From: a virus
Lineage: Duplodnaviria; Heunggongvirae; Uroviricota; Caudoviricetes
Strand: one strand, 5' to 3'
Length of the DNA stretch: 64,000 bases
IMG/VR virus record: IMGVR_UViG_3300037261_000110
In this document: piece after piece, positions 1 through 48,413 of the stretch
Layout of the letters: every line of letters begins with the position of its first letter
Numbering within the stretch: the first letter of the stretch is position 1
Program-made: the position numbers and the translations under genes
The notes under the pieces: model-generated
What the model was told of the DNA's origin: nothing
Seen by the model: the letters and a program-made list of their open reading frames with translations, nothing else
The model's database searches: none

Positions 1-66
1 ACCTAGCCCGATCTGATAGAATCTAAGGATAGCAAGGGGAAACGCTCGCCGAGCGCTCCCATGTCG

Positions 67-166
67 CGGTAAGGTGAAGGATTAACCTTACCCAGGATGG
101 TTAACGAGCGCCGTTAACCTTACCGAGTGTGGTTAACGGCGTTAACCTTACCCAGCATGGTTAACG
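67..166. repeat. Three tandem ~28-33 bp repeats, each with internal dyad symmetry (CGTTAACC-N11-GGTTAACG), preceded by a GGTAAGG/CCTTACC inverted repeat
   Basis: Seen directly: ttaaccttacccaggatggttaacg / cgttaaccttaccgagtgtggttaacg / cgttaaccttacccagcatggttaacg. Confidence 0.8.
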
Positions 167-190
167 TCGCCGCCTGGGCGCCAAAAACCC

Positions 191-260
191 GCGACTTAGG
201 CGGCGACTTAGGACCGGCGACTTAGGCGGCGACTTAGGATCACGATCGCCGCGACTTAGG
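191..260. repeat. Five direct copies of the 10-mer GCGACTTAGG at 12-22 bp spacing (iteron-like array)
   Basis: Seen directly: copies begin at 191, 203, 217, 229 and 251. Confidence 0.85.
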
Positions 261-566
261 ATCGCCAGCCGAAACCAAAATTGAATTGTCCAGCTCGAAT
301 TTTTAGCAAAAAATTGCTAGAAGCCAGCAAATTAGAAATCCATGCTACTTTCTCGTTGACTTAGCAAATTTTTCATGCTACGAAGCCTTCTGCCGACTGA
401 CCAAGCGCACCTGCTGGCACGAGATCAGTCGATGAGTCCCTGGTTAGCCGTGCCTCCTCACGGTGAGCTGCCTCTGATGCGGTGTTCATGACGCACCAGA
501 CGACTTCCGGGACGATCCTCAGCTCTCCGGCTGTACCTTTCTCGTTTGGTGCGGTCGGAGAGCTGA

Positions 567-622
567 CTTATCAGGTCATAGCTTGATTTATCATACGATT
601 TATCAGGTCACAGCCTGATTTT
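567..622. repeat. Two direct repeats TTATCAGGTCAyAGCyTGATTT, each with internal TCAGG/CCTGA dyad (operator-like)
   Basis: Seen directly in the sequence. Confidence 0.7.
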
Positions 623-708
623 TCGCCAAAATAGTAGATTAGAGCCTCATTTATACTATGATTGCCAATTGTTAATGAAAGCAACGCGCAAGTATAGCGC
701 AAGCAACA

Positions 709-805
709 CAAATTCATAAAAAGCGGACCCATCAAATTCATAAAAAACGGAGATGGGCTAAGTTTTTGGTTTTGCTGGCGATTTCGAGCTGGCAAATTCA
801 TAGAA
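709..805. repeat. Three copies of CAAATTCATA(A/G)AA; the first two extend to the 19-mer CAAATTCATAAAAARCGGA
   Basis: Seen directly; lies upstream of the small plus-strand ORF at 816. Confidence 0.7.
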
Positions 806-975
806 TGAGGAAACTATGAATTTTTTAGACTACTTGAACTACTATACGCAGAAATTGGCGTTACTTTCGTTCGGCTGGGAGGGATTTTTCACGATTCGGG
901 TCGATTCGCTCGCACACTGGACGAGCGCCTTATTCAACCAATCGGTTAAACGACCTATATTAGCGTTTGCTAATA

Positions 976-3879
976 CTATCTTAGCGGTCTACCGCGAAAA
1001 ATAGCCGTCATGATTGTAGGCTCCTCGAAGCCACGAGCGGCGATCTCCTTTTGAATTTGCTCAAGCCCGCCGATAAGGTTGCGAACTGGCGGTAATCCAA
1101 TATAATTTCGACCAGCCACTATACTTTTCGGTAAGGTACCGTCCTTTGGATTTGGCAAGGTACCTGCCTGAGAATCTGACAAGGTACCTGCTCCCTCAGA
1201 ATCTTTACGGTCCTCAGTCAGCTCTTGAAGCTTCGCCTCAACTTCCTTCCTCGCCTTTTCATTGTAGTTGCGAGAGCCAGCATAGCCGACGCCAGTCAGA
1301 CGCTTAGTACCGTACTTACGCTTCGGACGCGCCCAAGCGAGATATTGCGAAGTCGAGTCGCCCTGATCCTTGTACTTGGTCTCAGGCCAACCAAATATCT
1401 CAGCTTCATATTCTGCTAGCCACCCTGAATTCTCAGGTAGATGGACCAGATGCGCTTCCATCATTGGCGTCACACCATCCATGCGAAACTCTTTCGTAGC
1501 GTTATCAGTTGAGATAGCGATAACTGCACGCGGGCAATGTGGCGAGTTTGGATCGGATTGCTGCTGAATGTACTGAGTACCAGAACCCTTGTCTTCGACG
1601 AGAACACAATCCACATCTCTCAGCTCAGCAAGCTTGTTGAGCTTGTTTGCCATCTCAAAGAACTCCACACGCTTGCGGTAGACCTCGATCAAGTAGTGAT
1701 GGTTATCTTTAGTTTCATCCCAAATCGTTGCAACCGTATAAGCTGCACGCTCGTTGTTCTTGTTGGCAGTGTCGACTGACATAACACGACGCTTCACGTC
1801 TTTGCGCTCAGGACCGATGCGATAGCGTGTACTTGTGAACCATTCACGCTTGATGACGCCACCTTGCTCGTCGATCGGCTTGCCCATATACAAGCTGTTC
1901 CAATCCTTTGCGGATTGCTCAGACTTGATCTGCGCGAGAACATCTTTCGAAAAGAACTCAGGCCAAAGCGGATCACCAAACTGGCGTCCGATTGGATCGG
2001 GAACTGAATCGTCCAAGTAAATTGCCGGCAGGTTAATGATTTCCCAAGGGGCTCCATCGACCATACCTGCCTTGATCATCTTGTTTTCGGCCTCTAGGCG
2101 TCCGCAAAGATCGTCCGAATGCCAGCGCGTCGCCACTATGAACAGTGGAGCTTTGGGAAGCAGACGCGTAAGGTAGTCAGCCTTGAACCAAGCATAGGTT
2201 TTATTGCGGATCGTATCGGATTCCGCATCCTCTCTCGACGCAAATGGATCATCGACGCCAGCAAGATTAGTTCTGAAACCTGCAATTCCTTGTCCGACAC
2301 CACGTGTCAGATAAGCAGAGCCGTTATTTAGCACCCAATATCCGGCGGCGCGCGAAGCTGTGCTTAGCTGTATGTTCGGAAACACTTCAGCATAGCGATC
2401 AGACTCAATTATATCTCTGCACTTCTTACCAAATTCGTTCTCGACGAAGTTCTGGCTGTGTCCGGCTTGAAGATATTTCGTCTTTGGAGCAACACCCATC
2501 TTCCAGGTTGGAAATAAGCGCGAGGCATACGTCGAATTATGGGTTACAATATGTCCACGACCAACAAGAAACAAACCATCTTCGCGTTCGACAGTAATGC
2601 ATTGAGTCGATTGAGTTCCTTCAATCTTCTCGAACGAAATGTAACGTCCGTATTTACCTTCAAACTCAGTTGCACGACAGACCTTGCGCCATAGCTGAAA
2701 CGCACTCTTGAAGTAGAAAGACACGCGCCAATATTCACCGCAGTCTTTTCCGTTCAACATAGCACGTCCAGGGATGATTGAATTCTTCACCCCTAACGAA
2801 AACAGAAGTTCACTCACTGCGTCCCTCAAGCGAGAATTGGTTGAACAAAACGAACACTGTCCTGACGGCGAGACCGTTCCATCACTATCCATCAATCCTT
2901 GTAGAATTGATAAACGCACGTGATAAGAATTTCGAAGATACAGCTCAGGAACATGCTTATTGTTCAAGACACCAAGTGATACCAGATGCTTTCTAATGCC
3001 TAACAAACCAAATGCAGTCTTAGTTGTATGATCAGAAGTATGAACTCCGCACCATTCAATGCGCTCACGTACTTCCGGCTGATCCTTCACATCACATGTT
3101 ATTGTCGGTTGATCGGAATGCCCGTCGCCTAACCAATATCCAAGAACATAAGGATCAAGCGGAATCGTACGAGCCTTATATTCGACTGCTTCAAAATTTG
3201 GAAGTTTTGCACGGCGAGGAGATGTTCGATTGGCAAGATATTCAGTTGGATATGTCTTCCAATAATCACGCTTGCGATCTAATCGAACTGTCCACAAATG
3301 TTCCCCATCAACTAAAACAGCTTGTCCATCATCAGTGTATACACGATAGATTGTACGATTTTCAAACACCGGCGATTTTGCGATTATCTTAGTTGTTGTG
3401 CCGTCTGGTCCGTAAACCTTGTCACCGACTTTCAACTCAGCAATCGTTTTGTAACCGAGCGGAGTTGGAACCTTAGTATCCAGCACCATCGCTTTTGCAT
3501 GTCCTGGTGGCGCCGATATCATTAGACGCGAGTGCATTCCCTGTGACAAATCTGTCAGCTTATTCAGCATGAAGACATGCCAATCAGCCGGTGGTTCATC
3601 CGGAAAAATGTATTCACAATATGCAGTTAGGTCTTTTGGCGCGAGCTGAAGCAGAGCGCTCATGTACTCATTCGAAGTGCTTTCGTAAAGCTCTTCAAGT
3701 GCAATCAGCTGTTGCGCGGGATCGGTAGTACCTGTAAGTTCTATTATGAACTTAGTCTTTGTCGGCGTCAACATCGACTGACGTATCAGTGATGTTTCCA
3801 GCTCCGTCGCCACCATCTTCAGGTTCGTCAGTGACTTCCGTATCTGCTTGCGCGTCTTTTGCGAGATTATTTGCAGCAT
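976..3879 (-). CDS. terL: Terminase large subunit (TerL) interrupted by an in-frame intein. The extein N-terminus may start at the internal Met at 3816 or 3774
   Basis: Motifs: ATRWHSDDLCGRL, DGAPWEIINLP, FIVATRWH. A P-loop-like PPGHAK|S is split by about 319 aa that begin with a Hint block A and end in HN+S. Confidence 0.9.
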   Translation of the reverse strand: MLQIISQKTRKQIRKSLTNLKMVATELETSLIRQSMLTPTKTKFIIELTGTTDPAQQLIALEELYESTSNEYMSALLQLAPKDLTAYCEYIFPDEPPADWHVFMLNKLTDLSQGMHSRLMISAPPGHAKAMVLDTKVPTPLGYKTIAELKVGDKVYGPDGTTTKIIAKSPVFENRTIYRVYTDDGQAVLVDGEHLWTVRLDRKRDYWKTYPTEYLANRTSPRRAKLPNFEAVEYKARTIPLDPYVLGYWLGDGHSDQPTITCDVKDQPEVRERIEWCGVHTSDHTTKTAFGLLGIRKHLVSLGVLNNKHVPELYLRNSYHVRLSILQGLMDSDGTVSPSGQCSFCSTNSRLRDAVSELLFSLGVKNSIIPGRAMLNGKDCGEYWRVSFYFKSAFQLWRKVCRATEFEGKYGRYISFEKIEGTQSTQCITVEREDGLFLVGRGHIVTHNSTYASRLFPTWKMGVAPKTKYLQAGHSQNFVENEFGKKCRDIIESDRYAEVFPNIQLSTASRAAGYWVLNNGSAYLTRGVGQGIAGFRTNLAGVDDPFASREDAESDTIRNKTYAWFKADYLTRLLPKAPLFIVATRWHSDDLCGRLEAENKMIKAGMVDGAPWEIINLPAIYLDDSVPDPIGRQFGDPLWPEFFSKDVLAQIKSEQSAKDWNSLYMGKPIDEQGGVIKREWFTSTRYRIGPERKDVKRRVMSVDTANKNNERAAYTVATIWDETKDNHHYLIEVYRKRVEFFEMANKLNKLAELRDVDCVLVEDKGSGTQYIQQQSDPNSPHCPRAVIAISTDNATKEFRMDGVTPMMEAHLVHLPENSGWLAEYEAEIFGWPETKYKDQGDSTSQYLAWARPKRKYGTKRLTGVGYAGSRNYNEKARKEVEAKLQELTEDRKDSEGAGTLSDSQAGTLPNPKDGTLPKSIVAGRNYIGLPPVRNLIGGLEQIQKEIAARGFEEPTIMTAIFRGRPLR
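2536..3492 (-). mobile_element. Intein with a LAGLIDADG homing endonuclease domain, inserted in the TerL P-loop
   Basis: N-terminal block A-like (A)MVLDTKVPTPLGYKTIAELKVGDKV. Two LAGLIDADG motifs, LGYWLGDGH and LQGLMDSDG. C-terminus GHIVTHN followed by the +1 Ser. Confidence 0.8.
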
Positions 3880-4369
3880 CTTCTTGTTCTTTATCCATTT
3901 TTCGGAATGTATGCACTAGATTTGCGAGGCTCGAAGCAGTAGGTGCCTTAGACTTTTTCGTTTCAGAAATTCCGCCACGATCAACACCATTTTTACCGAG
4001 CTTACCCCACATTCCAAGATATTCGCCCATCAGTTCAATGCAACGAAAAGCTGCGTTATGCTGCTTTTCTAGCTTTGCGTTCTGAGCAAGCAACATAAGT
4101 TGTTCAAGCACCCACGTCTTTGTGAGTTCAAGGTCTTCGTCAGTCTTCGGACCATTCTTGAGAATGTCATCGATCGCCACAATCGATCCTTCAGCCGCCT
4201 CTATCTTCAGTTCGCGTATGCGCGCCTGAATCTCAAGCTGATGAAACATTTTTGAAGCGTTGCCTGGGTTTGGCGAATATCCGGCTTTTTCATATGAATC
4301 AGTAATGCCGCCGCCACGAACTATCAGGCTGCAAAAGTTCTCTCGACGAATATCTTGTAATTTCATCAT
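3752..4369 (-). CDS. terS: Terminase small subunit (TerS). The annotated start is an internal Met; the open frame extends to 4546
   Basis: Terminase_2-like motif ITDSYEKAGYSPNPGNASKM, an acidic C-terminal tail, and it overlaps the terL start. Confidence 0.7.
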   Translation of the reverse strand: MMKLQDIRRENFCSLIVRGGGITDSYEKAGYSPNPGNASKMFHQLEIQARIRELKIEAAEGSIVAIDDILKNGPKTDEDLELTKTWVLEQLMLLAQNAKLEKQHNAAFRCIELMGEYLGMWGKLGKNGVDRGGISETKKSKAPTASSLANLVHTFRKMDKEQEDAANNLAKDAQADTEVTDEPEDGGDGAGNITDTSVDVDADKD

Positions 4370-4511
4370 CTTACTTCTTGTTTGAGCCACATGATCAATG
4401 AAGAGTAACCAACCGACCGACCACTTATCTACCCACGTTTTTATTCTGCGGGTCTTCCTTCGATATTTTCCAATACGTATTTTCTGCTGATGTGCAAGCG
4501 GACTCCCTGGT

Positions 4512-5183
4512 TCACTTGGAAACGGTTTCCTTCCCATCGAATTCAATCACTGTTCTTGGTTGGTGTCCCTGATCGAACACACCATACATCGCAATCAGGC
4601 TGGCTTCCGCCCTGCCGTCGTCCTTTTTACGCTTGAACTGCGCGGCTGCACTTGGAAAGAGCTTCGAGGCACGCGCACGCGACAAATCCTTGTCAGCTCC
4701 GCATCCCATGCGCGCCTTCCAGATTGAAGGACGAACTTTGACAACCCTTAAGCGAAGTGATGCAGCAACGCCAAGAATCGTCCCAAGGCTGGCGCCGAAG
4801 GTGAATCCGTTCACACCACCATCGTGGACCATTCCCCAAACATCCTCTATATAAAGGATATTGCTCGGATGCTTACGCAGCCAACTGACGACCGCGTACG
4901 CATCAACCTCGCGTCGATTGGCAGTAGCTCCGAACACGTGGACTGGCATATCCAGGATGGCTAGCTTGCCCGCATACTCGTCAATCGCGGCTAGAGCGCC
5001 GGAATTGCCTGGATCAACTCCAATCGTCCAGAACCCGCTCCCAAGCCCGGCAAAGTTCTTGTCATCGACGAACCTCGCCTTGCAATCAGCCAGCGTCTTA
5101 CCATCTCCGCCCTCTGGCTCCGCCAGATGGCTTCCCGCTACGCGGGCCGAAACCACGTCGTTCGCACGATCTTCAGTAAACAT
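4512..5183 (-). CDS. RuvC-like Holliday junction resolvase
   Basis: Motifs IGVDPGNSGALAAID and ILYIEDVWG, and a basic C-terminal region. Confidence 0.65.
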   Translation of the reverse strand: MFTEDRANDVVSARVAGSHLAEPEGGDGKTLADCKARFVDDKNFAGLGSGFWTIGVDPGNSGALAAIDEYAGKLAILDMPVHVFGATANRREVDAYAVVSWLRKHPSNILYIEDVWGMVHDGGVNGFTFGASLGTILGVAASLRLRVVKVRPSIWKARMGCGADKDLSRARASKLFPSAAAQFKRKKDDGRAEASLIAMYGVFDQGHQPRTVIEFDGKETVSK

Positions 5184-5667
5184 ACTTCGTACATGCCATA
5201 CAACAACGTAAAAGTAAAGTAAAAGCACACATAGGGTCATTTTGGTTTGGTTCCCCACACCCTTCCGTGCGGGGCGCGAAAAGCTAAAAGAGCAACGTTC
5301 AAAAAGTAGTGTTTTTTAGCAAAAGCTAAGCTTTCTGCGGATGTGTCATAAAATCCACAACTTTTCGACCTACCACTTTTGGCCCCAAAACCCTTTATTT
5401 CTTTAGATAAGATCAATCAAAAGAATAAAAGAATAGTGGGAACCAGGAACACCAAACCAGTCAGGGTAAAACGCTTCGAAAAAATTTCTGTGCCTGAGCT
5501 GGTACAGTGAGACACCGGCGCAGATATTTGTGCCGGGCATTTTCCCCGCGACTGGTTCCGTGTTCCTCATTTACACTACGGTTTTTGAGCTTTCGTTGTA
5601 ATTCCAAGCCTTTTCACAACAATTTAATTGTTGATATTGACTTAATTGACCGTTTGTGCTGTACAGC

Positions 5668-5721
5668 TTGACAGAAGTCACTATTTGTGCTATCAACCGA
5701 CATCGCACAAATAGTGACTTC
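5668..5721 (+). promoter_or_regulatory. Sigma70-like promoter (TTGACA, 17 nt spacer, TATCAA) overlapped by a perfect 17-bp inverted repeat (GAAGTCACTATTTGTGC ... GCACAAATAGTGACTTC). A GAGGAA ribosome-binding site and the ATG at 5734 follow
   Basis: Seen directly; lies in the divergent intergenic region between the minus-strand packaging genes and the plus-strand early genes. Confidence 0.7.
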
Positions 5722-5733
5722 TGAGGAACCAAT

Positions 5734-6417
5734 ATGACTCTTTTCGTTAAAAACTTCGAGGAGCTGCACCAGAAGGTGCTCGACTTCGATCCGATCGTTG
5801 CCAATCGGCGCGGGCGTGTTGCGCTCCGTCTCAAGTTCTTTTGCGAGTTTGGCAACCGTAAAATCAGTGTTGGCGTTTATGCGCTCGCTAATGGAGCAAC
5901 CGAACGCAGGCGCTGTTACAACATCGCTGACGCCTTCAATTACCTCAATAAGTGTGGTGTTGAGCAAGATATACCAAAGGTCGAGCCCGGTCATGCAATT
6001 CAACCAGTCCGCAAAGTCAGGACCGGCAATAACGAGTTTGCCACGTCGGCGGTTGACAGAGCGATCTTGCTCAAGCCAATGCTGGACGCTTGGCACGATG
6101 GCGCACGCCGCCGCAACCCGCGCTTTCGCTACAATGGTGCAATTGAAACTCCTTGGGGAACAATCGATCTCGTTGGCTCTTACGATGGTAGGAAGCCACA
6201 TTTCGAATTTCAAGTGACTCGACAGGATACCTCGAAAAAGCTTCGTTACAGAGAAGACGAGCTGGAAAAGGCGTTCGGTGATCTATTCCGTGGCGCGAAT
6301 GGCGTCGAAGTCGAGACCTGGATTGAGCCGACTGACGATGATGTAAGCACCTATCCGAAGGCGGCGCGTTTTCCAACGATGCGCCCGAGCCGTAGAAGTC
6401 ACGCACATGAAAGCTAA
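5734..6417 (+). CDS. Hypothetical protein; first gene downstream of the operator-controlled promoter
   Basis: 227-aa ORF, RBS GAGGAA, no recognised motifs. Confidence 0.6.
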   Translation: MTLFVKNFEELHQKVLDFDPIVANRRGRVALRLKFFCEFGNRKISVGVYALANGATERRRCYNIADAFNYLNKCGVEQDIPKVEPGHAIQPVRKVRTGNNEFATSAVDRAILLKPMLDAWHDGARRRNPRFRYNGAIETPWGTIDLVGSYDGRKPHFEFQVTRQDTSKKLRYREDELEKAFGDLFRGANGVEVETWIEPTDDDVSTYPKAARFPTMRPSRRSHAHES

Positions 6418-7328: not shown

Positions 7329-7564
7329 CAATGCATCTGCGCTTCCGTGTTGCCGTCTGGCAAATCTTGCTCGGACTGTTCGTTCTGATTGGCATCATAA
7401 TGTGGGCAGTGTTGTAATGCTGACACAATTGCAACTCAATATGGTGAAAGAAGCGATCGGCAATGGTCACGATTGGCTGAGCACTTTCGCCTGTATGGAC
7501 AGGAGAGCTGACAGCATGCTTGGCTTCGATCCATATGCACGTGTAATGGTGAAGGTTGTCAACC

Positions 7565-7693
7565 ATGACTCTAAGTCATTTCGAACGGCTGGTGATCGGA
7601 CTCAATATCGTTATCCTCACCGTAGTGATGACGCTCGACTACTACGCCGTAAGCCACCAGCTACAGCTGTTCATGTCCTCACCACTTTTCTGA
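7565..7693 (+). CDS. Small membrane protein (42 aa)
   Basis: RBS GGTGAAGG; single TM helix LVIGLNIVILTVVMTL; lies in a different frame from the 148-aa track ORF. Confidence 0.4.
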   Translation: MTLSHFERLVIGLNIVILTVVMTLDYYAVSHQLQLFMSSPLF

Positions 7694-7855
7694 TTTTGGT
7701 CGGGATCGTTGTCGGCATCGAAACCGGCGTCGTGTGGGGAAGCCAGTGTGGTTTCGGTTCGTTCAATTGTGTCGTTCGCAGCCTTGGCCTCGCGGGAGCT
7801 GACGCCTACTATGCCCAACGCTTTGAGAACCATCATGCTCCGCAATAAGGAACGT

Positions 7856-8680: not shown

Positions 8681-8800
8681 ATGAAACATGAAATATTGAA
8701 GCTGCTGAAGCAGAAGATGTCAGTCAAAGAAATCGCTCAGATACTTGGTTTGTCTGAGTGGACCGTCGTCGCTTACATTGGAGTCAGGAAGCAATGTTAG
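8681..8800 (+). CDS. Miniature LuxR/GerE-type HTH protein (39 aa)
   Basis: LKLLKQKMSVKEIAQILGLSEWTVVAYIGVRK matches the LuxR C-terminal HTH consensus. Confidence 0.5.
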   Translation: MKHEILKLLKQKMSVKEIAQILGLSEWTVVAYIGVRKQC

Positions 8801-12550: not shown

Positions 12551-12992
12551 ATATCTGTCGCGACTGTCTGTACTACGGCGAAGGGTATCCAGGCTCGCCG
12601 GAGTGTTTCCATCCTGTCGCAACAACCAGCGTCGCGGCTTATATCGATCCGGTCACGGGAGAGCCGCACCAAGCGTCTAAATGGCAGTCGAGCTGTTACC
12701 TGATGCGTTTGCATTCTCACCAGTGTGGTCCAGCCGGACTGCTTTTTGCGCCGGCTAGGCATGCGTAGAGGGTTCGAACGATCTAGTAGACCCTGGCGCC
12801 TTCGTGGATCGTTTGATGATCGATCTCGTACATTCCTAGCCGACGAATCGGTGTAGCATGTGGAGAGGACTAAACGCAAGCGGCTTCGGCCGCTTTTTGT
12901 TAACTATTTGCGAATTTGGCTCTTGCATTTGCCTCCACGATCATGCATCTATTGGTGCAGAAAGAGTTACGAACATCGCGAAAGGAGTTCAG

Positions 12993-13250
12993 ATGCAAGC
13001 GTTCACCGAAGTCGATTGGACTCTGTGCGCGAAGTCCATTCTCAAGTCCAAAATGAAGCGGCGAGGCTTCACGTACATCGATCTAGCCGAGCGGCTTACT
13101 TCTCTCGGTGGCAAGAAGGAGACTGACGCCAATCTGCGGAATAAGGTTAGTCGCGGAACATTTACGGCGGCGTTTTTCCTTCAGTGCCTTGTCGCGATGA
13201 ACGTCAGAACGCTTCTGATCGACGAAGACATGGAGGTTGAACGTGACTGA
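12993..13250 (+). CDS. HTH DNA-binding protein
   Basis: Perfect RBS AAAGGAG; the HTH guess rests on RRGFTYIDLAERLTSLGGKKETDANLRNKVSRGT. Confidence 0.5.
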   Translation: MQAFTEVDWTLCAKSILKSKMKRRGFTYIDLAERLTSLGGKKETDANLRNKVSRGTFTAAFFLQCLVAMNVRTLLIDEDMEVERD

Positions 13251-48248: not shown

Positions 48249-48413
48249 AATTTGTGGCCTTTCCGGCTTTTTGGATAATGCTCGCATTAACCTAAATTGT
48301 CAATCGAAAAATAATGTGAACGAACTCGGGAATTTTTGGCGGTGTACGATCTCGCTTGACAAATCGAAGAAATTGTAGCATGAATCTGGCGAAAGATAGG
48401 AAAACAGGTAGAG

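Follow-up and report, generated by a model that had tools for sequence, protein, structure and literature searches.

A long inverted repeat in register with a host-type promoter between divergent gene blocks of an uncultured tailed phage: a candidate operator

What does a long, perfect inverted repeat do when it lies across the promoter from which a run of small phage genes is predicted to be read? The question is raised by IMGVR_UViG_3300037261_000110, a virus record assigned to the Caudoviricetes, of which a stretch of 64,000 nt (64 kb, referred to here as the window) was analysed. At 5672-5723 an inverted repeat overlaps a TTGACA-17-TATCAA promoter in the region that separates leftward RuvC-like, terS and terL genes from a long run of small plus-strand genes beginning at 5734, and a first-pass annotation of the window had described a palindromic operator at such a divergence of gene blocks. 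That placement was confirmed. The evidence tilts modestly towards a candidate operator, that is, a protein site in the DNA through which a host-type promoter would be repressed, and in kind the putative site is most likely an ordinary repressor binding site.

The repeat consists of a left arm at 5672-5690 and a right arm at 5705-5723, perfect over 19 nt and separated by a non-palindromic centre of 14 nt (5691-5704, plus strand). The palindrome described earlier is thus real, but its arms are 19 and not 17 nt long; the reverse-complement arm of the 17-nt version, GCACAAATAGTGACTTC, occupies 5705-5721. Allowing one mismatch extends the arms to 22 nt (5672-5693 and 5702-5723) with 8 nt between them. 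This is the best short-range inverted repeat of the window. At a loop of up to 40 nt the longest perfect repeat elsewhere measured 13 nt, and across 100 Markov resamples the longest one ranged from 9 to 14 nt. The length of the repeat is exceptional and far beyond chance. With up to three mismatches the arm was found at only these two places in the 64 kb (0.13 expected), and the search for half-sites elsewhere that had been proposed yielded no further arm copy at that threshold, either in the window or in the 9 kb further left; it did return a partial copy 31 bp upstream and a 9-nt core copy at 5525, both described below. As no other copy of the site was present in these 73 kb, a regulator that binds it would probably be dedicated to the promoter at 5668. 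The full palindrome had no match in 185,579 bacterial and archaeal genomes. Exact-arm matches at three loci in IMG/VR were rejected as chance, each being a single arm in the same unrelated context with no second arm nearby.

The promoter is made up of a -35 hexamer, TTGACA, at 5668-5673 with a C before it (CTTGAC), the 17-nt spacer GAAGTCACTATTTGTGC at 5674-5690, and an extended -10, TGcTATCAA, at 5688-5696 (TG at 5688-5689, TATCAA at 5691-5696), all on the plus strand. A Shine-Dalgarno sequence, GAGGAA, follows at 5723-5728, 5 nt ahead of the ATG at 5734. The two hexamers match the consensus at 10 of 12 positions, the -10 at 4 of 6 with its final T absent, so the word consensus used in the first-pass annotation was too strong, whereas the overlap of the palindrome with a promoter is supported, the promoter itself having two independent lines of evidence, class enrichment and related phages. 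Because the -10 ends in A, the site was not listed by a generic promoter scan. The class motif TTGAC-N15-TGCTA occurs in four exact copies in the window (356, 5668, 55465 and 61050, all on the plus strand) where 0.09 were expected, none of 100 shuffles reached four, and a fifth copy lies within the 9 kb to the left. The copy at 5668 is the sole promoter-like site scoring at least 9 in either direction in the intergenic region, and the 64 kb contain just two further perfect TTGACA-17 promoter-like sites; none of the other promoters of the class carries a comparable palindrome. Two related lineages, L015 and L016, were found (60-66% identity for RuvC, 66-77% for the terminase and 37-42% for the first rightward gene), both with the divergent architecture of the window, and in each the single best promoter-like site between the gene blocks is directed towards the first-gene orthologue (TTGACA-17-TATAGT in L015, TTGACA-17-TATTAA in L016). 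At the level of sequence the promoter is therefore well supported and very probably real. Its class resembles the alphaproteobacterial housekeeping consensus CTTGAC-N17-CTATAT, a likeness that is a lead rather than a test and that fits an alphaproteobacterial host.

Other promoter-like sequences were also observed in the window. Near-identical sites at 48303 (minus strand) and 51068 (plus strand), TTGACAAT...GAGCATTAT (TTGACA-17-CATTAT), are intergenic and lie ahead of genes starting at 48287 (minus) and 51128 (plus), and may form a second promoter subclass. The class match TTGACT-N15-TGCTAC at 356-380 (plus) aims at the 3' end of terL and is followed by a 19-nt inverted repeat of 84% at 519-537/548-566; the 356-566 element might correspond to a small RNA, non-coding or antisense, some 170-210 nt long. 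A leftward 'late promoter' motif, AAGAAATAAAGG, showed no enrichment.

The repeat and the promoter are in exact register. The 17-nt left arm originally described is precisely the promoter spacer, and the 2 nt by which the perfect arm is longer are the closing bases of the -35. From the usual distance of 7 nt after the -10, transcription is predicted to start at about 5702-5705, between the arms, so that the 14-nt centre holds the -10 hexamer together with the predicted start. The arms then fall at about -32 to -14 and +2 to +20, the right one beginning 1-3 nt past the predicted start and ending at the first G of the Shine-Dalgarno sequence, and the dyad symmetry overlaps the RNA polymerase footprint. 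With its predicted start between the arms, the mRNA of this promoter cannot form the hairpin. RNA from the predicted start includes just one of the arms, and its folding is no stronger than that of shuffled sequence (z = 0.0). For that transcript the symmetry would matter only in the DNA, which favours a DNA-level operator that blocks RNA polymerase. The coincidence of the top-ranked inverted repeat with one of three perfect TTGACA-17 sites argues in addition that repeat and promoter are functionally coupled. The repeat is not a terminator, since no T-run follows the stem on either strand, and a terminator scan did not list it. Comparison by eye with CtrA, LexA, CRP, IHF and C-box motifs gave no fit.

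Further copies of the same unit were found upstream. Unit A (5637-5665, plus strand) consists of TTGACT and a spacer; over 5637-5660 (TTGACTTAATTGACCGTTTGTGCT) it equals 5668-5691, the -35 and spacer unit, at 18 of 24 positions with an offset of exactly 31 bp. The third half-site noted upstream in the first pass is thus genuine and larger than had been stated. At the -10 position unit A reads TGTACA, with G for the key A and A for the final T; the TGCT of the class is kept, but as TGCTG rather than TGCTA. It is likely a dead promoter copy, though one that may have an auxiliary binding role. The three units are centred at 5651, 5682 and 5713, three helical turns apart, a phasing that matches the expectation for cooperative protein binding. 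A 9-nt core, TATTTGTGC, has three exact copies in the 64 kb, all within 5525-5713. The outlying copy, at 5525-5533 (plus), lies 157 bp or 15.0 helical turns upstream of the left-arm core; it forms the tip of a small hairpin on a larger structure, and its role as a binding site is doubtful. A perfect 8+8 palindrome, CAACAATT-T-AATTGTTG, was observed at 5617-5633, just upstream of unit A at about -86 to -70; it has the size of a typical dimer operator and no second copy in the window.

On this basis the following mechanism is proposed. Host RNA polymerase carrying a housekeeping sigma factor would use CTTGACA (5667-5673)-17-TGcTATCAA, initiate at about 5702-5705 and transcribe the first gene (5734-6417), probably together with the small rightward genes that follow. 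A sequence-specific protein would occupy two identical sites of 17-19 bp, one in the spacer and one over +2 to +20, whose centres, 31 bp or three helical turns apart, would place the protein on the same face of the helix, with a weaker third site 31 bp further upstream. Occupied sites would exclude or trap the polymerase and switch the operon off. The regulator would probably be encoded by the phage, possibly by a gene of the same operon, which would give autoregulation or a timed shut-off.

Several observations weigh against the operator. The arm centres are 31 bp apart, which is not the half-site spacing of a single dimer (adjacent major grooves, about 10-20 bp in total), and this distance implies two separate sites or a higher oligomer rather than a single-dimer operator. 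The description of a textbook repressor-controlled promoter consequently stands for the overlap geometry, with putative protein sites in the spacer and over +2 to +20, but fails for the spacing; the arrangement looks like two or three separate sites on one helix face. The start position that places the arms is a prediction and not a measurement. All eight metagenomic copies are identical across the region and so offer no variation with which to test constraint, and no cognate binding protein was identified among the products checked. As RNA the repeat is thermodynamically exceptional (-30.2 kcal/mol, z = -6.8) and stands directly ahead of the Shine-Dalgarno sequence, and transcription from unit A, if active, would start at about 5672, the exact base of the hairpin stem.

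The relatives add to these objections. L016 has no repeat at the promoter position, its -10 ending 7 nt ahead of the ATG. L015 has a different perfect inverted repeat of 12 bp, TAAAATTCATAG / CTATGAATTTTA, with 22 nt between the arms, located between promoter and ATG; both arms lie within the predicted 5' untranslated region (UTR) and the RNA folds moderately well (z = -2.6). From the lack of a repeat in L016 and the UTR position in L015 it follows that the operator is not conserved at the locus. When a weight matrix was derived from the L015 and L016 sites, the window arms were not among its top matches, and homology between the repeats of the relatives and those of the window was dropped. 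A palindrome beside the first-gene promoter is, as far as these sequences go, recurrent rather than universal and is unconserved in sequence. A comparison of L016 with L024 gave two intergenic differences, both outside the repeats, which carries no statistical power. P0004/L022 and L011-L014 were rejected as relatives, being other phages without the orthologous first gene.

One element of the L015 repeat does recur in the window. The 10-mer AAATTCATAG clusters at 710, 734 and 794 in direct and at 814 in inverted orientation, where, by our own calculation, about 0.1 copies would be expected in the window. That the motif is reused at different promoters of two phages, in both direct and inverted orientation, is more in keeping with a protein binding site than with a hairpin, and on that ground counts in favour of the operator. 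In the form AAATTCATA(G/A), between 710 and 823, the copies together give a perfect inverted repeat of 10 bp that surrounds the Shine-Dalgarno sequence and start codon of a small gene at 816-1004, and the motif is identical in L015 at 7330-7375, as the 12-bp repeat beside the first-gene promoter. It looks like a second pair of regulator sites common to the window phage and L015.

The folding energy raises the alternative that the repeat acts in RNA. Transcripts that start upstream of 5672, from the TTGACT-17-TGTACA element of unit A (predicted start about 5672-5674) or from an unrecognised promoter, would fold a stem of 19-22 bp ending at the Shine-Dalgarno sequence, which could stabilise the 5' terminus, be processed by RNase III or modulate translation. 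RNase III cleaves double-stranded RNA, and a stem of this length suits such substrates; the 12-bp stem of L015, wholly within the predicted 5' UTR, points the same way. The leaders of ompA and lambda N and the hairpins or RNase III sites of T7 early RNAs likewise place a long stable stem directly upstream of a ribosome binding site. In the window, however, the best-supported predicted start lies inside the loop, so that the main transcript would be without the left arm and both arms could occur in one transcript only if it came from unit A, which has G at -11 and A at -7, the pair of positions that matter most in a -10, and departs from the class with TGCTG for TGCTA. A role in RNA leaves unexplained that the left arm is bounded exactly by the -35 and -10 hexamers. 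Pairing in the stem is perfect, free of bulges and G-U pairs, the third copy is direct and unable to pair, and no Rfam 15 family reached its gathering score, the only hits being microRNA-shaped noise of 18-20 bits against thresholds of 51-200. We consider a function as an RNA hairpin unlikely.

A second alternative is that the promoter belongs to a hub of the replication-origin type with an autoregulated initiator. The product of the first gene would bind direct copies to start replication and inverted copies to limit its own synthesis, as in iteron plasmids, within an intergenic region of 475-700 bp that holds an AT-rich block, a 170-nt hairpin and the phased TATTTGTGC copies. The AT-rich block at 5395-5440 (CCTTTATTTCTTTAGATAAGATCAATCAAAAGAATAAAAGAATAGTG) shows recognisable conservation in L015 and L016, with a looser match in Sphingobium phage Lacusarx; the core copies are 31, 126 and 157 bp apart, equal to 3, 12 and 15 helical turns; the cumulative GC skew has its minimum at about 6-8 kb; and the first gene and its promoter are the sole elements conserved beside repeats. 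The relatives have multi-copy repeats of their own in the region, six in L016 and about eight of CATCACGC in Lacusarx. Initiators of iteron plasmids (RepA of pPS10 and P1, RepE of F, pi of R6K) also work with an inverted repeat over the promoter of the adjacent gene, direct copies upstream and an AT-rich stretch near by. The first gene product, however, resembles no initiator or DNA-binding fold in Pfam, PHROGs or PDB and has no detectable Rep or winged-helix similarity, the window holds only 3-4 copies, the L015 and L016 repeats do not overlap the promoter, the motifs of the relatives are not demonstrably homologous to those of the window, and the switch in gene orientation explains the change in GC skew equally well. 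An origin hub is accordingly held to be improbable. The same low standing is given to the proposal that phased TATTTGTGC-type sites are recognised by a novel type of sequence-specific DNA-binding protein, the orphan first-gene product, either by itself or together with the product of the second gene, which would autoregulate through the palindrome and organise the AT-rich block and the 170-nt hairpin as a replication or regulatory hub, shared with differing site sequences by its small phage lineage.

The structures of this intergenic region were also recorded in their own right. The hairpin, imperfect and about 170 nt long, lies at 5421-5592 between the AT-rich block and the promoter and is stable on both strands (plus, -66.6 kcal/mol, z = -5.8; minus, -70.1 kcal/mol, z = -6.9). 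At the matching relative position, 7520-7712, L015 has an equally stable structure of other sequence (-69.6 kcal/mol, z = -4.9); the counterpart in L016 is smaller. A search of Rfam with the 5421-5592 hairpin gave no match; it could be a structured RNA or a cruciform or origin element. The AT-rich block was negative when tested as a repeated late-promoter motif. The multi-copy repeats of the equivalent regions are TTTAGTAGTTTT, six times at 3125-3458 of L016, CATCACGC(CC), about eight times at 3074-3250 of Lacusarx (L026), and TTGGACTC, about eight times at 2630-2865 of Mwe-JY26 (L025), a pattern suggestive of a repeat-rich hub common to the lineage, with a site sequence that differs between phages.

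The repeat might instead be a neutral by-product, a functionless remnant of an event in which the 31-bp promoter unit was recently duplicated and inverted locally. Unit A does show a tandem duplication of the -35 and spacer unit, persistence under selection is not demonstrable from clonal copies only, and L016 copes without any such repeat. An unselected, perfect 19-bp palindrome over both core promoter and +1 region is nevertheless unlikely to be neutral, the three units are phased at precisely 31 bp, and L015 has an analogous repeat at an analogous place; we regard this origin as very improbable.

Least probable is a cos- or pac-like packaging or genome-end signal with the symmetric element, next to the terminase operon, as terminase cutting site and the upstream copies as small-subunit binding sites, for although the layout mirrors that of lambda cos, in which a symmetric site is followed by repeated sites and then by the terminase genes, the arms are bound up in sequence with promoter elements, none of the metagenomic contigs terminates at the repeat, a separate repeat-rich, gene-free stretch of 1.2-1.8 kb follows terL in the phage and its relatives, and relatives of the group have direct terminal repeats of about 10 kb on the far side of terL (PMC5648845; Caulobacter phage annotation).

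That gene-free stretch measures 1.17 kb in the phage itself, comprising window positions 1-815 and about 350 bp to the left (L027, 12999-14164), and 1.5-1.8 kb in the relatives. It is packed with repeats: three units TTAACCTTACC...(A/G)TGGTTAAC at about 82-165, with TTAACCAT-like CtrA half-site sequences, five direct repeats GGCGACTTAGG at about 192-270, and two TTATCAGGTCAyAGCyTGATTT repeats at 568-625. It is possibly a terminal-repeat boundary or packaging start.

To return to the candidate operator, which protein would bind it? Three small helix-turn-helix (HTH) proteins had been put forward in the first pass. The one at 8681-8800 (plus), in the same rightward block, is a genuine HTH protein of 39 residues. 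A check of some 30 gene products as far as 17 kb recognised no other HTH, and within 10 kb of the site no other DNA-binding protein could be recognised; we infer from this that the 8681-8800 protein is a candidate binder. The other two are not recognisable as HTH proteins. The gene at 12858-13250, within which 12993-13250 had been proposed, encodes a DUF6471 protein with no demonstrated DNA-binding fold and no solved relative, and the first rightward gene (5734-6417, plus; 227 residues), directly behind the promoter, has no recognisable domain, with no match in Pfam, PHROGs or PDB and an AlphaFold2 model that is unusable (pLDDT 41). It belongs to an orphan family that turned up in no more than three phage lineages. 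Two large protein searches, among billions of proteins, returned two relatives and one fragment, and none was found in IMG/VR, JGI metagenomes or isolated phages. The product of the second gene is weakly conserved in the relatives and has no known domain.

The candidate operator can be set beside known systems. The lac O1, tetO, lambda OR/OL and P22 Mnt/Arc operators likewise place dyad-symmetric DNA over the spacer and +1 of a sigma-70-type promoter, with extra sites nearby for cooperativity, and by analogy steric repression would be the expected outcome at the window site too. In those operators the symmetry is that of one dimer site, whereas the window has arms of 17-19 bp each, 31 bp from centre to centre, in two or three helically phased sites. 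By this comparison the site most resembles widely spaced, helically phased sites such as those of protein p4 of phage phi29, which at the early A2b and A2c and late A3 promoters are inverted repeats of the form CTTTTT-15 bp-AAAATG. There, too, a virulent phage uses a small DNA-binding protein of its own on widely spaced inverted repeats and switches off host-type early promoters. The likeness does not extend to sequence or protein similarity; the p4 sites are short A/T tracts as against the long specific arms of the window, and the switch to a divergent late promoter is a feature of phi29. Small early HTH repressors are made by phages of the broad group, as shown by TgrL of phiCbK, an early XRE-family repressor in a distantly related phage group, but TgrL targets mainly host promoters (PMC10688885). 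The feature belongs to no named system, while the promoter-embedded operator is a kind already known.

The phage in which the site lies was characterised from its wider sequence. A scaffold of 152,899 bp, scaffold_107 of ERZ28655145, is the longest of several metagenome assemblies that hold the window sequence at 100% identity. The closest isolated phages are Microcystis phage Mwe-JY26, Sphingobium phage Lacusarx and Erythrobacter, Citromicrobium and Ruegeria phages. Identity to these is only 42-50% for the terminase and about 30-40% for rIIA, and the window was therefore assigned to an uncultured tailed phage of about 150 kb in the Lacusarx/CbK-like assemblage. The region showed no DNA similarity to isolated phages in near or distant mode, and terL-based searches returned distant phages or short contigs only. 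The host is probably an alphaproteobacterium. From rIIA and the relatives with terminal repeats the genome looks like that of a large virulent phage; the parts examined showed neither CI/Cro-like nor integrase genes.

To the left of the site, all on the minus strand, lie the RuvC-like resolvase gene (4512-5258), the small terminase subunit gene terS (3752-4546) and the large terminase subunit gene terL (976-3879), which is interrupted by a LAGLIDADG intein. This intein-like insertion spans residues ~140-450 of the product and is absent from the terminases of L015 and L016, which in tblastn join residues 2-139 of the window terL straight to 449-949. The RuvC-like reading frames of the three phages (window 4512-5258, minus; L015 8001-8768; L016 3576-4226) have N-terminal extensions of 47-100 residues that are unconserved among them. 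The true protein probably starts near the WTIGVDPG motif, and the intergenic region would therefore measure about 700 rather than 475 bp.

That a repressor site may lie over a promoter is a principle long established. The TTGAC-N15-TGCTA class helps to annotate transcription units in the phage. The unique 19-bp site, available in inverted and direct copies, would be a clean pull-down bait for the regulator, while recurrence of TCACTATTTGTGC at additional promoters would speak for a global regulator instead of a dedicated one. If the operator is real, it would be the point from which about 40 small genes, for the most part uncharacterised, are controlled as a block in an uncultured phage of ~150 kb.

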